From IMG/VR virus record IMGVR_UViG_3300014000_000001, positions 32,001 through 96,000 of that record: a DNA stretch of 64,000 nucleotides; one strand, 5' to 3'. Below, in pieces: positions 9,801 through 17,700 of this stretch (position 1 is its first letter; every line of letters starts with the position of its first letter). Both the position numbers and the translations under genes were made by a program. The notes under the pieces were generated by a model. That model saw only the letters and a program-made list of their open reading frames with translations. It was not told the DNA's origin and did no database searches. The stretch is from a virus (lineage: Duplodnaviria; Caudoviricetes).

Positions 9801-12586
9801 GTTGAACCTGTTTTCAAACGGGCTGTGTTTTCCAGATGAGATAAATTACCACCAGATGCAAAAGAAGGAATCCAACCACCAGAAGCATAACCTCGTTTAG
9901 CGTAAAGATCTTGGCGTTTCTTCCATTCTTTCTTAGATAGTAAACTTTGGAGTACGGCTTTGTATCGTTCACTGTCAGGTAAATTACGTGCAATAATACG
10001 ATCTAATATTCTGATCCTCGCGGCTTTGGCTAGGCGTTTCTTACCTGAATTTAGATCTTCGATATCTTTACGTTGTTGTTCCTGAAGCTCTTGCTGTTTG
10101 CGATCTAGAGTTGATTGAAGAGTTGCATTCTTTGCAGTGTAACCCATGCTCCAAGGACTGCCTAAGCGATTTGCAATCAGTTGGTTTTGATCAAATCCAA
10201 ACGCTGCGAAGCTATTAAACTTCTTGGTACCTTCTTGCTTGCGTTTAATCGCATCGAAACGAGAATCACTGCTATGGATGTATTCACCTGTGGTAGGGTG
10301 AATGAGGTAATCATCCCCTAAAGTCATTCCAGAGAATGCTAACCCGCCTTGATGTAAATCAGCAATATTTCTTAACCGAGTATTAGCTCTTTGAGCATCG
10401 CTTTGATGGGATGTACCTACGTTAGGCTGATAACGAAGCTTTTGCTTTTGACCCATATAGTCATAATCTTCATCGATTGCATGAATTTCATAACCATCTT
10501 CATCTCGCGATAAACGTCCATTTTGTTTATAATCCCTTGTGTATTGCCCGTAAAGGATTTCTTCAAAGTTTGGATTGATGGAATATACCCCATCGCTGGT
10601 TTCTATTATCGCTCCGCGTTTGATTAAGAATCTTAATCCCTCGGATGAGGTCTTCGCCATACGTTCAATTCCTTTCTCATCCATTACTGGCATTTTTCGA
10701 ATATTGACGTTTAGGTTAGAGAGCTCACGTTGCTTGCTATTATACTCTTTAAAACCCATCATGGAGATTTTTGCAATATCCATCACGGATTCACTATTCA
10801 TGAGCTGTTCCTGTAATTTTTCAGGAAGATTCATGAGTTTAGGGACTTTGAATAATAATTCACCTTTTACATCTGGCGGGGCTTTAAAGTTAGGCGTTAG
10901 TAATTCAAGAGGGTTCATGGTCCCTGAAGAAGCACGTTCTTTAATTAACCACTTTTTAATATAACCTACAGCTTTAGCACTGAGTAAGTGATTCTTATCA
11001 AATGCATTTAACCACTCATCTAGTGCATTGCTGGCTTGTTGGACTTGATCTTTTTTAACAACCTCATCCATCATGTTATCTTCAAGTTTCTTCGTATCTA
11101 CAAAGTCACCTGATTTAAAATCCCAAGACACGTCTTTAGCATCTTTCCCATGAGCTGCCCGGTAGGTGTTCATGTGGATCTTTTTAAGCCATCCTGGAAT
11201 AATATCAATTACCGTTAAACGGAAACGATTATCCATAAAGGCTGCTTTCTCTAAGTCTAAATCCTTAGCATTGTAAGCAGTTCGATCTCCAGAAATTGCT
11301 GCGTCTCTTAGATCGAAGAAGTCAACTAAACCATCAATGAGGTTATTACCAAAGCCGTTCTTTAATCCTTTATTAATGAGTGCTGGAGCTTGAGCAGTCA
11401 ATGCAGAAAGATTAGAACCATATACATCCCAACCACGCTTTTCCATCTGGGCACGGATTTTAGGAGATAGCCAGTCAGCGCCTTTACCGACTAATTTATC
11501 AATCCCCATCCCTAGACCCATTTGGCGTGCTAAGGCACCATAGTGTCCTGCAGCGGTACTACCATCTTCAACAGAGTCACGGGTGTTATCGTTGAACATG
11601 GAAAGGTTGGAACCAATCTCTTGCCAGAAGTTACTCATCTTACCGCGGATTTTACCAACCACTCGTTTGGTAAGTTGTGATCCTACTCCATCGAATGGAG
11701 CCATGATCCCGCCCATAACTTTCTGGGCAAGTGCTTGTTGGGCGATTTCCGAAGCATTGATCTTAAGATAATCTGGTAAGCCTGTATTTTTGTGGATAGC
11801 TTGCAGCTCTTCCATGCTCTCTTTACGATAAGCACTTAAGAGTTGTAATTGTCGTTGTTGGGTAACAAAGGTACGTGCTTGTAACTCAATACTCTTACGT
11901 TGGAAAGTATAAGTGATTTGCTCATTAAAACTTCTTTGAGCAATGATTCCTTTGTTAATACCCTCTAATAATTTATTGCCTTGGTTTTGACGTTCAGCGG
12001 ATTGTTCTTTATCCACCATATCGGCTTCAAAGCGTTCATCATCAACTTTCTGACGTTGCTCATTGGAAGCATTTTGCGCCTGCATATGCGCGCCGAAGGT
12101 TTCATCTAAAATAGATTGAATCTTCAGTTCATCGAGTTGATCTTCAGAAGGAGCGCCAGAAGAAGAACGTTCTTCTTCATTTGCCCAAGCACTAAGTCTT
12201 TTTAGTCCTAATTTATCTGTAACCGAACTAAACGATCTTACAACACCCTTAACATCCTTACGGACTTTTTCCCATTCTTTTTGTTGGTCTCGCCAAAGTG
12301 ATGCCACTTCATTTGAGACAGTATCATAACTTTCAAGGACAGGAGTATAATCTGACGGCAAAGCTTTTTTCATGAGCTCACGTCTAAGCTTGGCATCATT
12401 TTTTAAAAAGCTTAGATGGTCAGCCACATCCTCTTTTAATTTCGATGTGAGGGTTGCTTTACGACCAGAGTCTTCAGCATCTGCTCCATCAAAGTTAAAA
12501 TCCATATCATCGAATTCTGAGAAATCGATATCATCACTAGAGCTGGTATTCCTAGCTCCTAGTTTACTTTTTCCAAATCCGAACAT
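3827..12586 (-). CDS. Tail tape-measure/lysin, phiKZ gp181-like, with GH19 and CHAP/NlpC-P60-like domains (2919 aa)
   Basis: Size and position divergent from the vRNAP genes. GH19 motifs AHES..F...RE, YKGRGYIQLTG..NY, VNGG.NGLEDR. Cys/His motifs GKCAEYVR...PYGHICIF. Confidence 0.85.
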   Translation of the reverse strand: MFGFGKSKLGARNTSSSDDIDFSEFDDMDFNFDGADAEDSGRKATLTSKLKEDVADHLSFLKNDAKLRRELMKKALPSDYTPVLESYDTVSNEVASLWRDQQKEWEKVRKDVKGVVRSFSSVTDKLGLKRLSAWANEEERSSSGAPSEDQLDELKIQSILDETFGAHMQAQNASNEQRQKVDDERFEADMVDKEQSAERQNQGNKLLEGINKGIIAQRSFNEQITYTFQRKSIELQARTFVTQQRQLQLLSAYRKESMEELQAIHKNTGLPDYLKINASEIAQQALAQKVMGGIMAPFDGVGSQLTKRVVGKIRGKMSNFWQEIGSNLSMFNDNTRDSVEDGSTAAGHYGALARQMGLGMGIDKLVGKGADWLSPKIRAQMEKRGWDVYGSNLSALTAQAPALINKGLKNGFGNNLIDGLVDFFDLRDAAISGDRTAYNAKDLDLEKAAFMDNRFRLTVIDIIPGWLKKIHMNTYRAAHGKDAKDVSWDFKSGDFVDTKKLEDNMMDEVVKKDQVQQASNALDEWLNAFDKNHLLSAKAVGYIKKWLIKERASSGTMNPLELLTPNFKAPPDVKGELLFKVPKLMNLPEKLQEQLMNSESVMDIAKISMMGFKEYNSKQRELSNLNVNIRKMPVMDEKGIERMAKTSSEGLRFLIKRGAIIETSDGVYSINPNFEEILYGQYTRDYKQNGRLSRDEDGYEIHAIDEDYDYMGQKQKLRYQPNVGTSHQSDAQRANTRLRNIADLHQGGLAFSGMTLGDDYLIHPTTGEYIHSSDSRFDAIKRKQEGTKKFNSFAAFGFDQNQLIANRLGSPWSMGYTAKNATLQSTLDRKQQELQEQQRKDIEDLNSGKKRLAKAARIRILDRIIARNLPDSERYKAVLQSLLSKKEWKKRQDLYAKRGYASGGWIPSFASGGNLSHLENTARLKTGSTKGQPDQEHLVKTHGGEYVVSKDATDFNKTLLESINKLGAPLINSDNTINSVYYRLFGFKSEKEFKEGARLKGLTSKAKEFANEQEEMAVEKIWQALDISVGNFTKEEMASVLNKKLPAKRRLANGMKLWTKQQQAKAKADPKAYASRLGKMGINKLHDKFNRFIDPKGEGTNVEIVNSLAGIGKKIGSDAWSTGKSLGQAGWKSAKNLGMSTKSHLLDRDRTMTAVSQTLKEAENPKMFNLPIDLYFKGKGTPFLTKQGFRNHEYIDQKSGSVIKNPSEVTGTVVDKEGAVIVSFVDLANNEIVTRAGKPYRMLGLQEANRRYMSATEYAGKRYAILAQSERFRDTLEKAKNARDKFILDKPIDIYDRNGKLLLTAEGFKERRYMDKNTGNILWSHHDITGPVIDVQNKGNVVLTEEQLTDGLFNNEKEHVKISKLKQYRNMAFKRTNEVYQKYASKYVNKYGGKALNWMSAMGEKRVGLNYDNNPIDIYIAGETEPRITAAQFKAEKVFCKDKPIKSHSGISGAVMMQNEHGFYIKITVEELPQLVDAMGEKLKLPLMMSATERFGSYLKEAALPGAKGKAFMNFLKMSGDKRQELFEDEIKKRKIAYDVYIKGNPSTPVLTKKGFESNHYLSQKTGKVITIPEFIDGPVMDTGKQLLITEEDLKKGLMTVDGKAIHINAGEFEGLFGGLHRHAQIMKRIGANKADEMITKIEDVRIKGQKDILIKAMDIKSGKYFRADNGKPVKDYADLLAGVKDEKGNTIVSEADLKTGLETVSGKNIQTLAKFKGGMRGLTNFFRKGSWADQRDNAKNKKGKDKDPKEKKEKKESWISKLIKGLMSPFGMILGGLGSSLLGGFGTLLKGSIGWLGSALSLKLGGGPIGSLLGALLPGVGEGKGGKGKGLLGAAKWMLGSTTGRLATAGLAYAGYKGYQHWTGDAEAGDPNTKEDPYKQEPEKGMGSKAWDLVKTYGPYAAMMFPGATWKLAKGIVGGGGKLLGKGAVAGVKGAGQAAAWGATKLATKLPGMAGTLGKVASGAARVGAGTWAGTGAMIRGGITTASWLLKGARLLTPWGIAATIAWYGGKALYNMWKDGKNPWNRFRMAQYGFDHNDSGITDKIAKMETIAQSLIQVGVKSVSFKEDQKAVDEILKICGFKDENGQDIAEQQERLPAFSIWFKERFLRVFASYAQTLKQILGKPDIVDLQKLDRGQQTQLLKGVHFTATEHNPYMIKQSPFEDPDRCEMGMNDVEKISRKLRDKISQLPKPPEKAKALTATEDAPLDANKKGKSEADKAVEKQMNKDGKDKPKTPSTKTAVDEANKAVKYQSLAAQAVVKQNREAIVKTTQEANKQTDSLFDKMIDGLTSKIKNFQSAAATAWNKITSGNFGETMDGIGDAAGLAANAVGLGGVYSAGQWLGDQVSSIGGGNAKAAEQNLITTAKKAGITNPTELAMLLSQAAHESNGFKTTREYGKDADFAKYNNRRDLGNGPNDGAKYKGRGYIQLTGKANYAAFSKWAGQDFVSKPELVEKEPWASLATVWFWTQHPNMTKRGRAAAQRGDIIGATKAVNGGLNGLEDRKKYWAKYSQMAKDPKGFESSTTTNNAFTARNASASKEGSSQTSNAFTQRNAPVQPQSQKATTTLPPTIAAPTATNKQAGGIIGNAMASLDAKYGNKSTPTPLSSPTAQKAQAVTTAKVTNAPDWDIDKIAQTVTARSKGPWRQGLNVGKCAEYVRAALQSGDLKGQIKGGFGHAYQLMQALQSLGWVNVGTINTVKPQKGDIACFDRGSYTDKTGKPTPYGHICIFNGTAWISDFTQNQMYPSSKASGAKHYILRAQSQLCKTGAVPTNMVAPETAKASAGTQAIANTPIAKSNSSAKVSQTMNSISNGSASTTSSQTYTPPPQTVAPSGETNVILGKQLVVQEKILSLLEQLVGNTSSTNRSINPNSNSQENSAITKQGLTIPQLEVKKDVLSKPAPVSPFADVTNPISVKKPA

Positions 12587-12660: not shown

Positions 12661-14109
12661 ATGCTTAAACCCATGAATCCAGCCAGTATTGCGATCTTTA
12701 AAGCTGAAGCTTCAAAGTTTCGACATGTGGGTCGTGTGAAGGTATTAGATGTCTTCCAAAACAATACTCGTGACTTCCATAGTGAAGGTTTATTCTCCAC
12801 TGAAATCTTTGGACGGGTTGGTTCTAATGAACGTTTGACTCGTTTCGGTTATATTGATATTCATGTTCCGATTCTCCATCCACGTGTCTTTACCAAGCTT
12901 TGTAATTTGAAACAGCTCTACAAAGAAATCATGGCAGGTAAAGAGTATGCCATTTGGGATGCTAAAGAGGGAGATTTCGTTAAATCCGATCAGATGGACG
13001 GTGAGACAGGTTATCAGTTCTTTATCTCTCACCTACCTGAACTTAAACTTAAACGCACCCAATCTAATCTACGTGATAATAAAATCAAAGTAGTGAAGAA
13101 CAATTTAGATCGAGCATTAACTGAATACATTTTGGTAATGCCTGCGGGTTACCGCGATCTAGAAGTAGATGAACATGGTGGTACTGACCAAGCTGAAATT
13201 AATGATTTCTATCGAACGCTGATTAAAATCTCCAATACTTTATCTACGATTAATGATCTAAACTCTCCAATCATTGATAAAGCCCGCTTTTCATTACAAA
13301 TGGCTTTTAATGAGTTACATGACTATTTAATGAGTAACTCAACCAAAGGTAAGGGTTCATTCTTTAACTCTAAATTTGGTCGACGTAAAATTAAATATGG
13401 TACGCGTAATGTCTGGGCGGTTGCATCGGTATCAGTTAAACACTTAGATGACCCAACCAATTTTATGCCTGATCATACTCAGGTAGGTTTATTTCAAGCA
13501 GTGAAAGCAACTGAACCTTTATTCATTCATCATTTGCGTACAGGTTATGTTGATCAGGTATTCAATGGCGAAAACTCAGCTTGGCTCATCGATCCTAAAA
13601 CGTTGAACCGAGTTGAGGTTCCCTTAAAACCTAGAACCATAGATCGTTGGAAAACTGTTGCAGGTTTAACTAAGATCATTAACCAGTTTGAAAATGTACA
13701 AAAACGTAATGATTACATTATGGTGGATGGACATTATCTAGGTTTAATCTATCGTCGTGAAGGACGAGTTCGTCTGGTTTATAGTTTAGATGATGTTCCT
13801 GTAGATCGTGCGGAGGATAAAGATTATATTTATCCAATTACCTATGGCGAGTTATTCTTCTTGATTTGTAACCGTTATCAAGGTGAATGTCCTGCTGATA
13901 TTACTCGTTACCCGATTGCTGGAGCTGAATCAATCTACCCATCTTATAACTATCTAATGTCAACTGCCGAACCTTATCGCGTGATTGAATTAGATGAAGA
14001 ATGGAAAGACACTACAAACGTAACTTCACAATTTCCAAACACGGAGGTATCGATTTGGTTTGATACCATGGGACCACACCCGATTAAAGTACCTGAAGCC
14101 GGTGGCGAT
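12661..14109 (+). CDS. Virion RNA polymerase beta'-like subunit (phiKZ gp180-like), exon 1
   Basis: Motifs GLFSTEIFG, FGYIDI, PAGYRD, TRYP; ends at GGD, the first Asp of the catalytic DxDGD motif. Confidence 0.9.
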
Positions 14110-14594
14110 AAAATGTATGTAAATTAACTACATGTTAATTGAAATGTCCTCTTGTAGGGAAACCTGCTTGAGTTTTCTCTCGAAATTGTCTGGAACTCCA
14201 TTGAAATATGGACACCATAAGAGCCAACACTACCTGGTAGTAACTATAGGTGCGAAAGCAGAAACAAGTGTGTTGGATGACCTAAGGTTAAATCCTAAGG
14301 GTTAGTAGAATTGGGAACCAGCAGCGAAGGTATTGTTGAGATAACAAAACCGCGTTCAACGACTATCCCTTTGCCAGGGAGTAGGGGGTAGCACCTCCGA
14401 AGTGAGAGACCGATAACAGTAGAGTTATCCGGAATGCAGTTAACCGAGCATTCTGCCAAACGTGATACTCGTGGGATAAGAGATAGTCTACTCTGTTCTG
14501 GAATTGACCAGAATATACAAAGGGTGAAAGCCCCAGCGGGTACTTAAATGCGTACCGCCTTTGGAAGTTAAAGCGATCCGAAGGGGATAATAGG
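14110..14594 (+). mobile_element. Group I intron (IA-like), 485 nt, no homing endonuclease ORF
   Basis: 5' exon ends in U and the intron ends in G. P AAATTGTCTGGAA (14183), Q AACCAGCAGC (14316), R GTTCAACGACTA (14354), S AAGAGATAGTCTA (14478). P7 GACTA/TAGTC, P3 TCTCTC/GTGAGAGA. Removal restores GGD-YDGDT in frame. Confidence 0.93.
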
Positions 14595-14765
14595 TATGAT
14601 GGAGACACGGGCAACGATAATGTAAATATGTCAGAAGAAGCAAAAGAAGATACTAGAAAATATCTGAATTCATTAAATGCACATATTGATGTGGATGGTA
14701 ACATGATTGGTTCTCCTTTGATTGATCCAATCAAACGTATCATCTTTAACATGACTGGAGCTTAA
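14595..14765 (+). CDS. Virion RNA polymerase beta'-like subunit, exon 2 (56 aa; spliced protein 539 aa)
   Basis: Reads YDGDTGNDNVNMSEEAKEDTRKYL...FNMTGA*; stop is 2 nt before the next ATG. Confidence 0.9.
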   Translation, partial: YDGDTGNDNVNMSEEAKEDTRKYLNSLNAHIDVDGNMIGSPLIDPIKRIIFNMTGA

Positions 14766-14767
14766 TC

Positions 14768-17700
14768 ATGCAAATCATGATTGATAAGTTTGTACGTAGC
14801 TATTGTGTCCGTAAAAAAGATCAAGTTCAAAATCCCCCAATTCACAAATTAAAAGAGTTGGTATTTCCTCGTAATTCTCAAATTCATTTTCTCTCTAAAG
14901 ACGGCAATGAAATTGGGATTACTTCAACAAATCCAATCTTAAACAACATGGATAAAGGTAAAGTCATTTCAGAATTTGTGACCTCTTATTCTGTTGAGAA
15001 AGCAGGTGGGTTTAAACGTGTCACCATGGATATGAAAGAACCTATCCGTGATTACATGCGTCGCAATAAAGGGATTGCAGATGCACGCTTTTCTAAATCT
15101 GATATGCTCCTAGATAAGAACATCATTGTGAGTAACTACGGGTTAATGGAAGAGAATGTTAAATACTTTAACAATCCTCGTCAATGGTGGATACGTTTTC
15201 AAAACTACTGGGGTTCGGTATTTAAAGATGTAGAAGATAAGGTACGAAGTAATCGTCGAAACCACTTCATCATTATGAATATCCCAGATGTGATGCCGTC
15301 TGTTTCTCAATTTCGTAAATTTGCAGAAGTTGAAAACAATCAAAGTATTGATAAAATTGCCAACTCAGAACGGATGCTCATTGCTCAATTCTGGTTATGG
15401 TTTATGGATAGCCCACGCTGTATCCTACCTAAAGATCCAAATGTCACCAATCGCATGTATGTGATCTTTACATGGCATGATCAATGGTTATGTTTTAATC
15501 TTGCCAGTATCCGTACTTACATGAAAACATCAAGTAATCCTAAAGGTAGTTGGGATACTTTTCGAATGCAGCGTAATTTTGTCATTATGCTTCTCACTAT
15601 GCAATTTGGTTTGATTGACCATATGGCGTTTGCTGATGAAGAGGGTGAGGAAGCACATGATGCGCCACTCACTGAAGAAGAGAAGTATGAGCTTCAACAA
15701 GACCTTAAAGATGACACCTTAGGGGTGCTGTCTCAAGACCCTGTTGATTCGGTTAAGGAAAAGATTACCCAAGCGTTCGATACATTGGAAGTAGATATTG
15801 CTGAAAAAGAATCTATCGAAAATGTAGAAGCTAAACGTAATAAGAAAGCTGATAGTTTACTTGATGAATTAGAAGTGGTGAATGCCAATACTGTTGATAA
15901 TATTCAAGAAGCTTCCCCAAATACCGAACAGCAGATCTTAAAAGATGATGATGGGGAAGCGGTAAAAACTATTTCTCGAGAGCAGGTGTTAATCGATTAC
16001 CAAGTTTATCAACCCAAAGAGCTTAACATCGAAGAGAAGTTCGATGAACATCTTAAAGATCAAGTAGTGAAAGGTTCAGTTACCCCACAGCAGATGAAGC
16101 GTTTAGAGAAGCTTGCTCGTCGTTATAAAGAGATCCCTGATCCTAAAACTGGAGTGAGTTCTTTAGAAGTTGCTGCTAAGATCGAAGCTAAAGATTTGGT
16201 AATCTCTAAAGATGAGAAGATCACTGATAAAATCAATATGGTGAATGATGAATCCATGTTGAAATCTACTTTAGTGTCTTACAATAAAAAGTACATCAGT
16301 ACTGTAATGCATAAGGATGTGTATAACTCCGTTTTAGCTTTACAACGTCGTGGGATTGCTGTACAGAACTATTCGATTAAACGAGTAACTCAGCTTGGCG
16401 ATGATTACGAAGTCCATTCGGTGAAATTAGTTCCGATTGATGGTGAGCCTTCTACTGTGAACTTTAAAGTTCCAGTGATTGACGATCACGGAGTATTCCA
16501 ATCTCGTGGAATTCGCCTTCGTATGGCAGCCCAACGAGTTGATATTCCAATTCGTAAGATCGGTCCCGATGAAGTTTCTTTGACTTCTAGCATGTCTAAG
16601 ATGTTTGTGGAACGCTGTCAGTTTGTTGCTTATTCTCGCGATCAATGGTTAAAGTCTAAACTCTTAGAGTTGGTCGGTGATCAATCTGGAGTAAAGGTGA
16701 GCTTTGGCAAAGTCTTTAAAAATGATGAGGATGTGCCGTTGGCTTATTCTCGGTTTGCCCGTTCAGTTAAACGCATTCGTTTTCAAGATTATGATTTAAA
16801 CTTTGATGTGAGTAAATTAGATTCATTCTTTGGAGATGAAGTTGTAAAAGCCTTTGATCCCACTCGTGGTACTCAAATTCTACTTGGTAAAGGTAAGGAC
16901 ACATTACTGATCTTAACCAAAGCAGGAATCGTACATGAGTGCGGTATTGACAACAAAGATCACAAAGAGCTTGGCCCCTTAGAAGAGTTCATTGGATTAG
17001 ATACCTCATCTGCACCTAAAGATTGTGCTGATTTAATTGTGGTCTCTAAGAATATTCCGTTAGGTTTTGTCTTAGGTTATTATGTTGGTTTAGGGAACCT
17101 ACTTAAAACCTTAGATGTTAAATATCAATTCATTCCGAAGAATACTCGAACCGCTCGTTTAGGTAAAGATTCCATAGAGATTAAGTTCTCAGATGGAACG
17201 CTTGAAATCTACGATTATGATTACAAAGCACAATTAGTTTTACAAGGATTCAACCGCTATCATCGTTTTGTTAAACGTTATCCAATGGTAGAGTTTGATA
17301 AAAAGAGTGTCTATGGGTTAATTCTTAATGAGGTGGGATTACCTGCACGATACGAGCGTGAGCTTCGCATCTTAAGAGATATGTGGGTTGATCCAATCAC
17401 TGAAGAAGAATTAAAACGTATGGGTGAACCTACGGATTTTGTTCTTCTACTTTTACGTGCTGCTGAATTACTTGAAAAGGATATGCATCCTGAAGCAATG
17501 GATCGTGCATATCAACGCGATCGCGGTTATGAACGTATTAGTTCCATGATCTATGATGAATTGGTGAAATCTATCCGTGCTTATGAATCAACGCCTGTAC
17601 GAGCTAAAGCAAAAGTTACCATGAACCCTGAAGCGGTTTGGATGAAGTTAATTGGAGATGAAACCACAGCCCCAATTGAAGAATCTAACCCAATCCACGC

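Follow-up and report, generated by a model that had tools for sequence, protein, structure and literature searches.

A probable group I intron without an endonuclease gene in the catalytic-loop codons of a phiKZ-like virion RNA polymerase

In the 64,000 nucleotides (nt) analysed here, referred to as the window (bases 32001-96000 of the 232,790-bp IMG/VR virus record IMGVR_UViG_3300014000_000001, estimated to be 86% complete), the beta'-N gene of the virion RNA polymerase (vRNAP; 12661-14767, plus strand) is interrupted at 14110-14594 by an insert of 485 nt. The insert sits in the codons for the catalytic Mg-binding loop of the enzyme, between the first Asp (GAU) and the Tyr of the motif DYDGD. 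What is this insert, and how could a complete catalytic subunit be made from a gene broken at this point? We take it to be a self-splicing group I intron of the IA type, with a probability of roughly 0.9, a reading derived from sequence comparison.

The interrupted polymerase gene and its intron-less allele

The record was assigned to the phiKZ-like, nucleus-forming jumbo phages on the basis of three features, namely a 2919-amino-acid (aa) structural protein on the minus strand, the vRNAP beta'-N and beta gene order found in phages OBP and Eowyn, and, elsewhere in the genome, a nuclear-shell protein gene beside the non-virion polymerase gene. Exon 1 of beta'-N (12661-14109, 483 codons; this and all gene and intron elements described for the window lie on the plus strand unless stated otherwise) was recognised by its match to PHROG 2986 (E 5e-155), a weak match to Pfam RNA_pol_Rpb1_1 and the vRNAP beta'/beta synteny with OBP and Eowyn. 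It ends with ...GGT GGC GAT at 14109, GAT being the codon for the first Asp of DYDGD. Past this base the frame reads AAA ATG TAT GTA AAT TAA (KMYVN, then stop), with the TAA at 14125-14127, five codons into the insert; the unspliced open reading frame (ORF), 12661-14127, encodes 488 aa and lacks YDGD, the truncated product that the original prediction had described. The insert ends with ...ATAGG at 14594, and exon 2 (14595-14767; 56 codons and a stop codon at 14765-14767) continues with TAT GAT GGA GAC (YDGD) and matches the PHROG 2986 profile at positions 485-538 with an E of 2e-08.

Joining 12661-14109 to 14595-14767 (predicted spliced junction ...GGTGGCGAT joined to TATGATGGAGAC) restores GGD-YDGD and gives a protein of 539 aa ending in ...NMTGA*, as had been proposed; the vRNAP beta gene, included for context only, begins with the ATG at 14768 and extends to 19099 (PHROG 3148, 1247 bits). 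Exon 1 covers positions 3-484 and exon 2 positions 485-538 of the 539 positions of PHROG 2986, without a gap across the join, and since these positions adjoin, the join is exact to the residue. In the spliced protein the three-Asp motif is D483-Y-D-G-D487, and its surroundings, GGDYDGDTGN, correspond to GADFDGDTGS in Eowyn and GGDFDGDALS in OBP. The family profile places the motif on SGDYDGD of the AR9 beta' subunit (7S00) and on NADFDGD of bacterial beta', with a whole-protein E of 6e-12 and weak matches for the local stretches; this profile search found a match where a phmmer search of the intron-less protein against the PDB returned none. In multisubunit polymerases the catalytic Mg is held by these Asp residues.

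An uninterrupted form of the gene was found in P0004, a 535-aa homologue with 96% protein identity in the protein search, which is present on three contigs (L006-L008) and whose residues D479, D481, G482 and D483 are invariant across 20 homologues. On L008 (238,595 bp) the gene is continuous and the motif reads GADHDGD. Window and L008 are about 100% identical for kilobases on both sides of a divergent tract of ~1.4 kb (~13361-14745), within which identity is 85-90% and reaches its minimum, 60-70%, exactly across the insertion point. The two genomes thus provide an intron-plus and an intron-minus allele with a co-conversion-like exon tract, the pattern expected if an intron had moved in or out together with flanking exon sequence, and the near-identical pair is a clean natural example of intron-linked gene conversion. 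Smaller mosaic patches relative to L008 occur at about 11361-11760, 15946-16245 and 16446-16545. A search for close relatives in IMG/VR with a single protein found nothing.

Ribozyme core and splice sites

The group I intron model RF00028 aligns to 14109-14510 at 44.2 bits, with an E of 7.6e-10 when 901 nt are scanned and of 5.4e-08 for the entire window; no other RNA family was matched in the 64 kb. The alignment spans model positions 1-253, the full model, and shows the conserved P4 strands, P3, P6, the J6/7-P7 element GUUCAACGACUA and the P7 3' element AGAUAGUCU; P7 and the conserved J3/4, J6/7 and J8/7 sequences agree with the family consensus. The score is reduced because of large insertions in P5 and after P9, and its low value is consistent with ~230 nt of inserted peripheral helices rather than with a missing core. 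A second RF00028 match elsewhere in the genome (G000:C1 221789-221918, 18 bits) was discarded as noise, as a joint scan did not reproduce it. An intein was ruled out, since the insert is a structured RNA with stop codons in the reading frame of the exons. GenBank phages yielded no megablast match to the locus, and two exact intron-core patterns of 26-28 nt found nothing in IMG/VR.

For the secondary structure, the intron from the guide to the 3' end was aligned with its counterpart in the related locus L009, and the RNAalifold consensus was completed by adding P7 by hand. The resulting model comprises 117 pairs in 20 helices, all of which are standard in both window and L009, none being broken; 17 of the 117 pairs are changed on both sides and five more on one side (e.g. 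G-C to G-U). When the 3' partners were slid by 1-3 columns, pairing fell to 36-44% and no more than a single pair was changed on both sides; the observed pair values were not reached in any of 500 shuffles. The single-sequence fold of the intron has a minimum free energy z-score of -3.19.

The helices of a group I core could be assigned throughout. P2 (14150-14171, GAAA loop; helix 2) contains one compensatory pair. The 5' strand of P3 (14176-14182) forms seven pairs with 14403-14409 (helix 3), and the P4-P5 domain (14187-14323; helices 4-10), with P4 formed by 14187-93 and 14318-23, carries a long P5 extension of three hairpins (14208-14304). P6 (14324-14355) is helix 11. The 5' strand of P7, GACUA (14361-14365), pairs with UAGUC (14484-14488) in the Rfam alignment to form the guanosine-binding helix (helix 12), so that the P3/P7 pseudoknot is present with standard pairs in window and L009 alike. 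The insertion of ~35 nt between P7 and P3' (14366-14398) folds as two hairpins, P7.1 and P7.2 (14366-14380 and 14384-14398; helices 13 and 14), with three compensatory pairs relative to L009. This pair of hairpins is the hallmark of the IA type, and the class named in the original prediction was borne out by both the RF00028 alignment and the paired hairpins. The P8 region (14410-14475), supported by the Rfam alignment, the L009 comparison and the single-sequence fold, forms three hairpins, and P9 with its peripheral P9.x hairpins (14492-14584; helices 17-20) contributes ten compensatory pairs.

The P5 extension is 70-85% identical (blastn) to unannotated stretches of Enterocloster, Staphylococcus, Enterococcus and Listeria phages, one of which adjoins a gene annotated as 'intron-associated endonuclease'; in this part the window intron resembles introns of Staphylococcus, Enterococcus and Enterocloster phages.

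At the 5' splice site, exon 1 ends with GAU (14107-14109), the 5' strand of P1, which was read by eye and not scored. The internal guide sequence GUCCUC lies at 14146-14151, and its GUC(C) stands directly before P2 in the window, L009, L010, L028, L092 and L094, i.e. in 6/6 loci whose sequence reaches the guide position, while exon 1 ends with GAU in 7/7 related loci. Because this GAU faces the GUC of the guide (G14146-U-C14148), U14109 would form the U.G wobble with G14146. Also by eye, exon positions -5/-6 covary with guide positions +5/+6, being GG/UC in the window, L009 and L028, and GC/GC in L092 and L094. The hairpin AAUUAAC-UACAU-GUUAAUU (14122-14140; 7 bp, 5-nt loop), which extends P1, was assigned by comparing 5' and 3' parts of the introns and is contained in the centroid fold; a first guess for P1, an AUGUA...UACAU hairpin at 14113-14133, was dropped for it, as AAUUAAC/GUUAAUU is homologous to the ORF-enclosing helix of L009. 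At the 3' splice site the terminal intron base is G14594, and the last base is likewise G in all four relatives with complete ends (L009, L010, L028 and L094); these four introns and that of L092 all follow a U. The limits U14109 and G14594 agree with those predicted earlier and are the only consistent ones, because a shift by one base breaks the U/G rule or turns the catalytic Asp into Glu. We consider it highly probable that a true group I intron occupies precisely 14110-14594.

Several points weigh against this reading. The RF00028 score of 44.2 bits lies under the curated gathering threshold of 50 bits, and for this reason a default Rfam scan of the window is blank; the covariance-model match that the original prediction had called for was obtained in E-value and coverage, yet not at the gathering score. 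The pair counts rest on one relative, L009, whose alignment with the window also supplied the structure itself. On the exon side P1 is short (3 bp, a C.C mismatch and 2 bp), the guide GUCC (14146-14149) has a second possible partner in GGAU (14585-14588), and no P10 pairing in the intron was convincing. Outgroup identities do not polarise the difference between the alleles, which may be a gain in the window or a loss in the relative. Finally, the source is a metagenome assembly, and the phage may be defective. As to the alternative partner of the guide, it lies seven to ten bases before the 3' end and reads GGAC in L009, L010 and L094; the pairing competes with P1 except in L094, which has two copies of GUC.

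On the strength of the sub-threshold Rfam score, the short exon side of P1, the metagenomic source and the lack of an endonuclease ORF, the intron could be viewed as a decayed relic that no longer splices, in a virion polymerase gene that is dead because the assembly represents a defective variant or a non-viable genome. The 117 modelled pairs are, however, intact, with 17 of them compensatory relative to L009; P7, J3/4, J6/7 and J8/7 agree with the family consensus; the reading frame is open in both exons, each of which matches the family profile; and ORF-less introns recur at the same site in L028 and L094. We therefore regard a dead relic as highly improbable and retain a functional intron as the preferred reading.

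Dependence of the catalytic subunit on splicing

In pre-mRNA of the beta'-N gene, the exon end GAU would pair with the guide GUC at 14146-14148, placing the U.G wobble at the cleavage site. A guanosine bound at P7 would attack after U14109, the freed exon 1 would in turn attack after the terminal G14594, and the ligated exons would be translated into the 539-aa subunit with an intact catalytic loop. Unspliced RNA would be terminated at the TAA at 14125, giving the 488-aa protein with one of the three Asp residues. Both the activity and this order of events are inferred for the intron at 14110-14594.

In the frame of exon 2, no ATG, GTG, TTG, CTG or ATH codon occurs from the stop at 14505, inside the insert, up to YDGD at 14595, and the first ATG, at 14628, lies 11 codons beyond the motif. 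As YDGD thus has no start codon before it, only spliced RNA would yield the other two catalytic Asp residues, and the earlier proposal that active vRNAP depends on splicing is upheld on this ground, as far as the reading frames can tell. A different view would be that no splicing takes place and that the gene is truly split, the 488-aa protein and a small exon-2 peptide assembling as separate subunits. In phiKZ-like phages the polymerases do consist of split beta and beta' pieces, and the parts of this gene are entered as separate coding sequences (CDSs) in the RefSeq records of related phages. Translation from the ATG at 14628 could, however, not supply the two Asp residues, the spacer is a recognisable ribozyme, and the intron-less allele is a single ORF, all of which render a true split scarcely credible.

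With splicing as the preferred explanation, infectious virions with an active early polymerase would need a working ribozyme, and splicing would be a possible point of control or vulnerability. In a nucleus-forming phage, it can take place away from ribosomes.

Related introns, the missing endonuclease and the polymerase paralogue

Interruption of this motif recurs among related phages. Among the 120 best protein clusters, 24, the window's own product included, stop at the first Asp of the motif or immediately beyond it, and two further clusters end after DFD (P0100 and P0112, ...DFDR). At the nucleotide level, five related loci (L009, L010, L028, L092 and L094) carry an intron at the same point, D|YDGD or D|FDGD. 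L009 and L010 have inserts of 2069 and 2247 nt, in which a 507-aa and a 576-aa ORF, respectively, both HNH_3 + NUMOD1, are followed by cores of 53.7 and 71.3 bits. Neither L028 (insert of 384 nt, core of 60.5 bits) nor L094 (insert of about 458 nt, core of 44.9 bits) has an ORF in its intron, and in L092 a core of 65.7 bits is reached before the contig ends. In two further IMG/VR loci, L082 and L084, an intron (61.6 bits) follows the whole DYDGD motif.

Cultured phages show such splits as well. Vibrio phage 2 TSL-2019 (L100) is interrupted at GGC GAT|TAT GAT, with a 416-aa ORF, annotated as hypothetical, in between. Photobacterium phage PDCC-1 (L099) is split similarly (core 38.7 bits); its exon 1 ends with GAC U, which may put the insertion one base downstream, and no exon 2 was located. 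In Elvirus phage IR-QUMS-PaBa1 (L101), where the split follows DHD, the core scores 45.5 bits and an HNH homing endonuclease is annotated. A homologue on the IMG/VR contig L083 ends with ...RLGAD*, and neither a group I core nor a DGD-containing exon 2 was found within 4 kb downstream.

The introns of L009, L010, TSL-2019 and PDCC-1 thus share gene and insertion point with that of the window, PDCC-1 with the possible offset of one base, and those of L009 and L010 also share the guide GUC(C). They are of the same ribozyme lineage, the core of L009 being ~85-90% identical by eye. They differ from it in size and content: the relatives' introns are 1.7-2.2 kb long and contain an ORF of 416-576 aa in their 5' part, where the 485-nt intron of the window has a 5-nt loop. 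The best explanation is that the window intron belongs to a lineage that occupies this site in many phiKZ-like phages, usually with an HNH/NUMOD1 endonuclease in the P1 loop.

No such enzyme is encoded in the window intron, as had been noted before. The only plus-strand ORF of at least 40 aa wholly inside the insert has 57 aa and matches neither Pfam nor PHROG, and a 129-aa minus-strand ORF that overlaps the intron has no PHROG match. The ORF of L009 is enclosed by the helix AAUAGCAU/AUGCUAUU and that of L010 by an 11-bp helix; both helices sit between the 5' splice site and the guide, and the homologous element in the window is the 7-bp hairpin at 14122-14140. L091 probably carries a homologous ORF at the same place. 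Because the distant L010, the close L009 and probably L091 have homologous ORFs there, a deletion is the simplest history, and the ORF was most likely lost in the lineage of the window's intron. Left without it, the intron would probably be inherited passively or spread only by ordinary recombination.

The original prediction had left open whether the endonuclease was lost or acts in trans, and had suggested a scan of the genome for a free-standing HNH or GIY-YIG nuclease. The ORFs in the introns of L009, L010 and L100 favour loss. The scan itself yielded no free-standing enzyme: searches of the genome for GIY-YIG, HNH (PF01844) and LAGLIDADG_3 were blank, and the sole HNH_3 gene (G000:C1 110884-112017, 377 aa) lies between the two halves of the beta'-N gene of the non-virion RNA polymerase (nvRNAP), within an intron of its own, where a 257-aa ORF precedes it. 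This split paralogue, at about G000:C1 108412-112130 (L098 3413-7130), outside the window, was recognised by its exon join and motif: exon 1 ends with ...AAC GCA GAC U and exon 2 begins with UC GAC GGA GAU GAG, which restores NADFDGDEM and puts the intron one base downstream of the equivalent position in vRNAP. Rfam does not detect the nvRNAP intron. By eye, it contains a P4-like element, UAAUUGCUGGAA, and P7-like elements, GUUCGACGGUC and GAGAUGGUCU. The nuclear-shell protein gene precedes that of nvRNAP, an order also seen in phiKZ gp54-gp56.

It could be supposed that the vRNAP intron has kept its mobility, with the HNH enzyme of the nvRNAP intron or that of a co-infecting phage acting on it in trans. 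The genome does hold one HNH_3 gene, in an intron one base off the equivalent motif position of the paralogue, and the vRNAP intron is flanked by the divergent, conversion-like tract. The nvRNAP HNH protein is, however, 27% identical to the L009 enzyme over 185 aligned residues, about 12 of 21 bases agree between the two target sites, and the two introns lack nucleotide similarity (blastn of the vRNAP intron against the nvRNAP intron region gave nothing significant), while homologous recombination in a mixed infection explains the tract equally well. Mobilisation in trans is accordingly unlikely, and loss of the ORF with passive inheritance remains the preferred account.

A broader proposal is that the five codons of the beta' Mg-loop form a shared landing pad for group I introns in phiKZ-like phages, used in both paralogues, on which ORF-less copies persist because their similar target is still recognised by the HNH enzyme of the paralogue's intron or by that of a co-infecting phage. 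Within the motif codons, introns were seen at no fewer than three points (after D, after DxD and after DxDGD), insertions occur in both the virion and the non-virion polymerase paralogue, and one genome can hold both. We put this forward tentatively, as a rather improbable reading; if true, the two polymerase genes would constitute a linked arena for intron-mediated competition, as shown for PhiPA3 and PhiKZ.

It is textbook knowledge that group I introns occupy active-site codons of essential phage genes, and in its general features, an IA-type core with P7.1/P7.2, the window intron is like the IA introns of T4 td, nrdB and sunY, of Staphylococcus phage Twort, and of the DNA polymerase gene of Bacillus phages SPO1/SP82 (with I-HmuI). 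With the phage IA introns it shares the position in catalytic-site codons of an essential nucleic-acid enzyme and the early in-frame stop, and the HNH/NUMOD endonucleases of its relatives have an I-HmuI-like architecture; it differs in its host gene, a piece of a multisubunit RNA polymerase beta' subunit in a phiKZ-like jumbo phage.

The genes for polymerase subunits of jumbo phages are often disrupted by introns (bioRxiv 10.1101/2020.12.14.422802; PMC2919709; PMC10914365), with many split polymerase genes in AR9 and the MarsHill-like Staphylococcus jumbo phages. In 201phi2-1, gp273/274 are split by a mobile intron (PMC2919709), and in phiKZ, gp56, gp72 and gp179 are predicted intron endonucleases, with one transcriptome study having seen no splicing (PMC10914365). 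A close parallel is PhiPA3, where the gp210 intron, a putative group I intron, interrupts the virion beta gene (gp211/209) behind two conserved Asp codons and encodes an HNH enzyme that nicks gp178 of PhiKZ (Birkholz et al. 2024, PMC11620839). Like the window intron, the gp210 intron is found in a vRNAP gene of a nucleus-forming phiKZ-like phage, immediately behind conserved Asp codons of an essential motif, and it has an HNH-type endonuclease, as do relatives of the window intron. It differs in interrupting the beta gene (the gp178 homologue) at another motif and in having kept an endonuclease, with nicking shown, whereas the window intron is ORF-less and known from its sequence. In a literature search that was incomplete, no paper was found that names the DxDGD codons of the virion-enzyme beta' as an insertion site. 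Introns in jumbo-phage polymerases are already known. The window intron is most likely an ORF-less derivative of an HNH-bearing IA lineage that recurs at the beta' catalytic-loop codons. The current understanding of phage introns is unchanged by it; what it adds is the hotspot in both polymerase paralogues, the intron-plus/intron-minus genome pair and the consequence for annotation.

The expectation that automated annotation would miss exon 2 was confirmed. Gene callers give a truncated beta' of 484-488 aa for the window (the gene caller's product here being 484 aa), and the splits in the cultured phages are entered in RefSeq without an intron feature, as two or three unrelated CDSs; for L099 and L100 these are an 'RNA polymerase beta subunit' of 477 aa, a hypothetical protein of 416 aa and an 'RNA polymerase beta subunit' of 53-59 aa. 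Because gene callers and RefSeq split the gene, a sizeable share of jumbo-phage genomes has a wrong description of the catalytic vRNAP subunit, about a fifth when counted over the 120 nearest protein clusters. Metagenome contigs with truncated alleles (L091, L092, L093 and L095) end inside or just after the intron, suggesting that this polymorphic or repeated element causes breaks in assembly.

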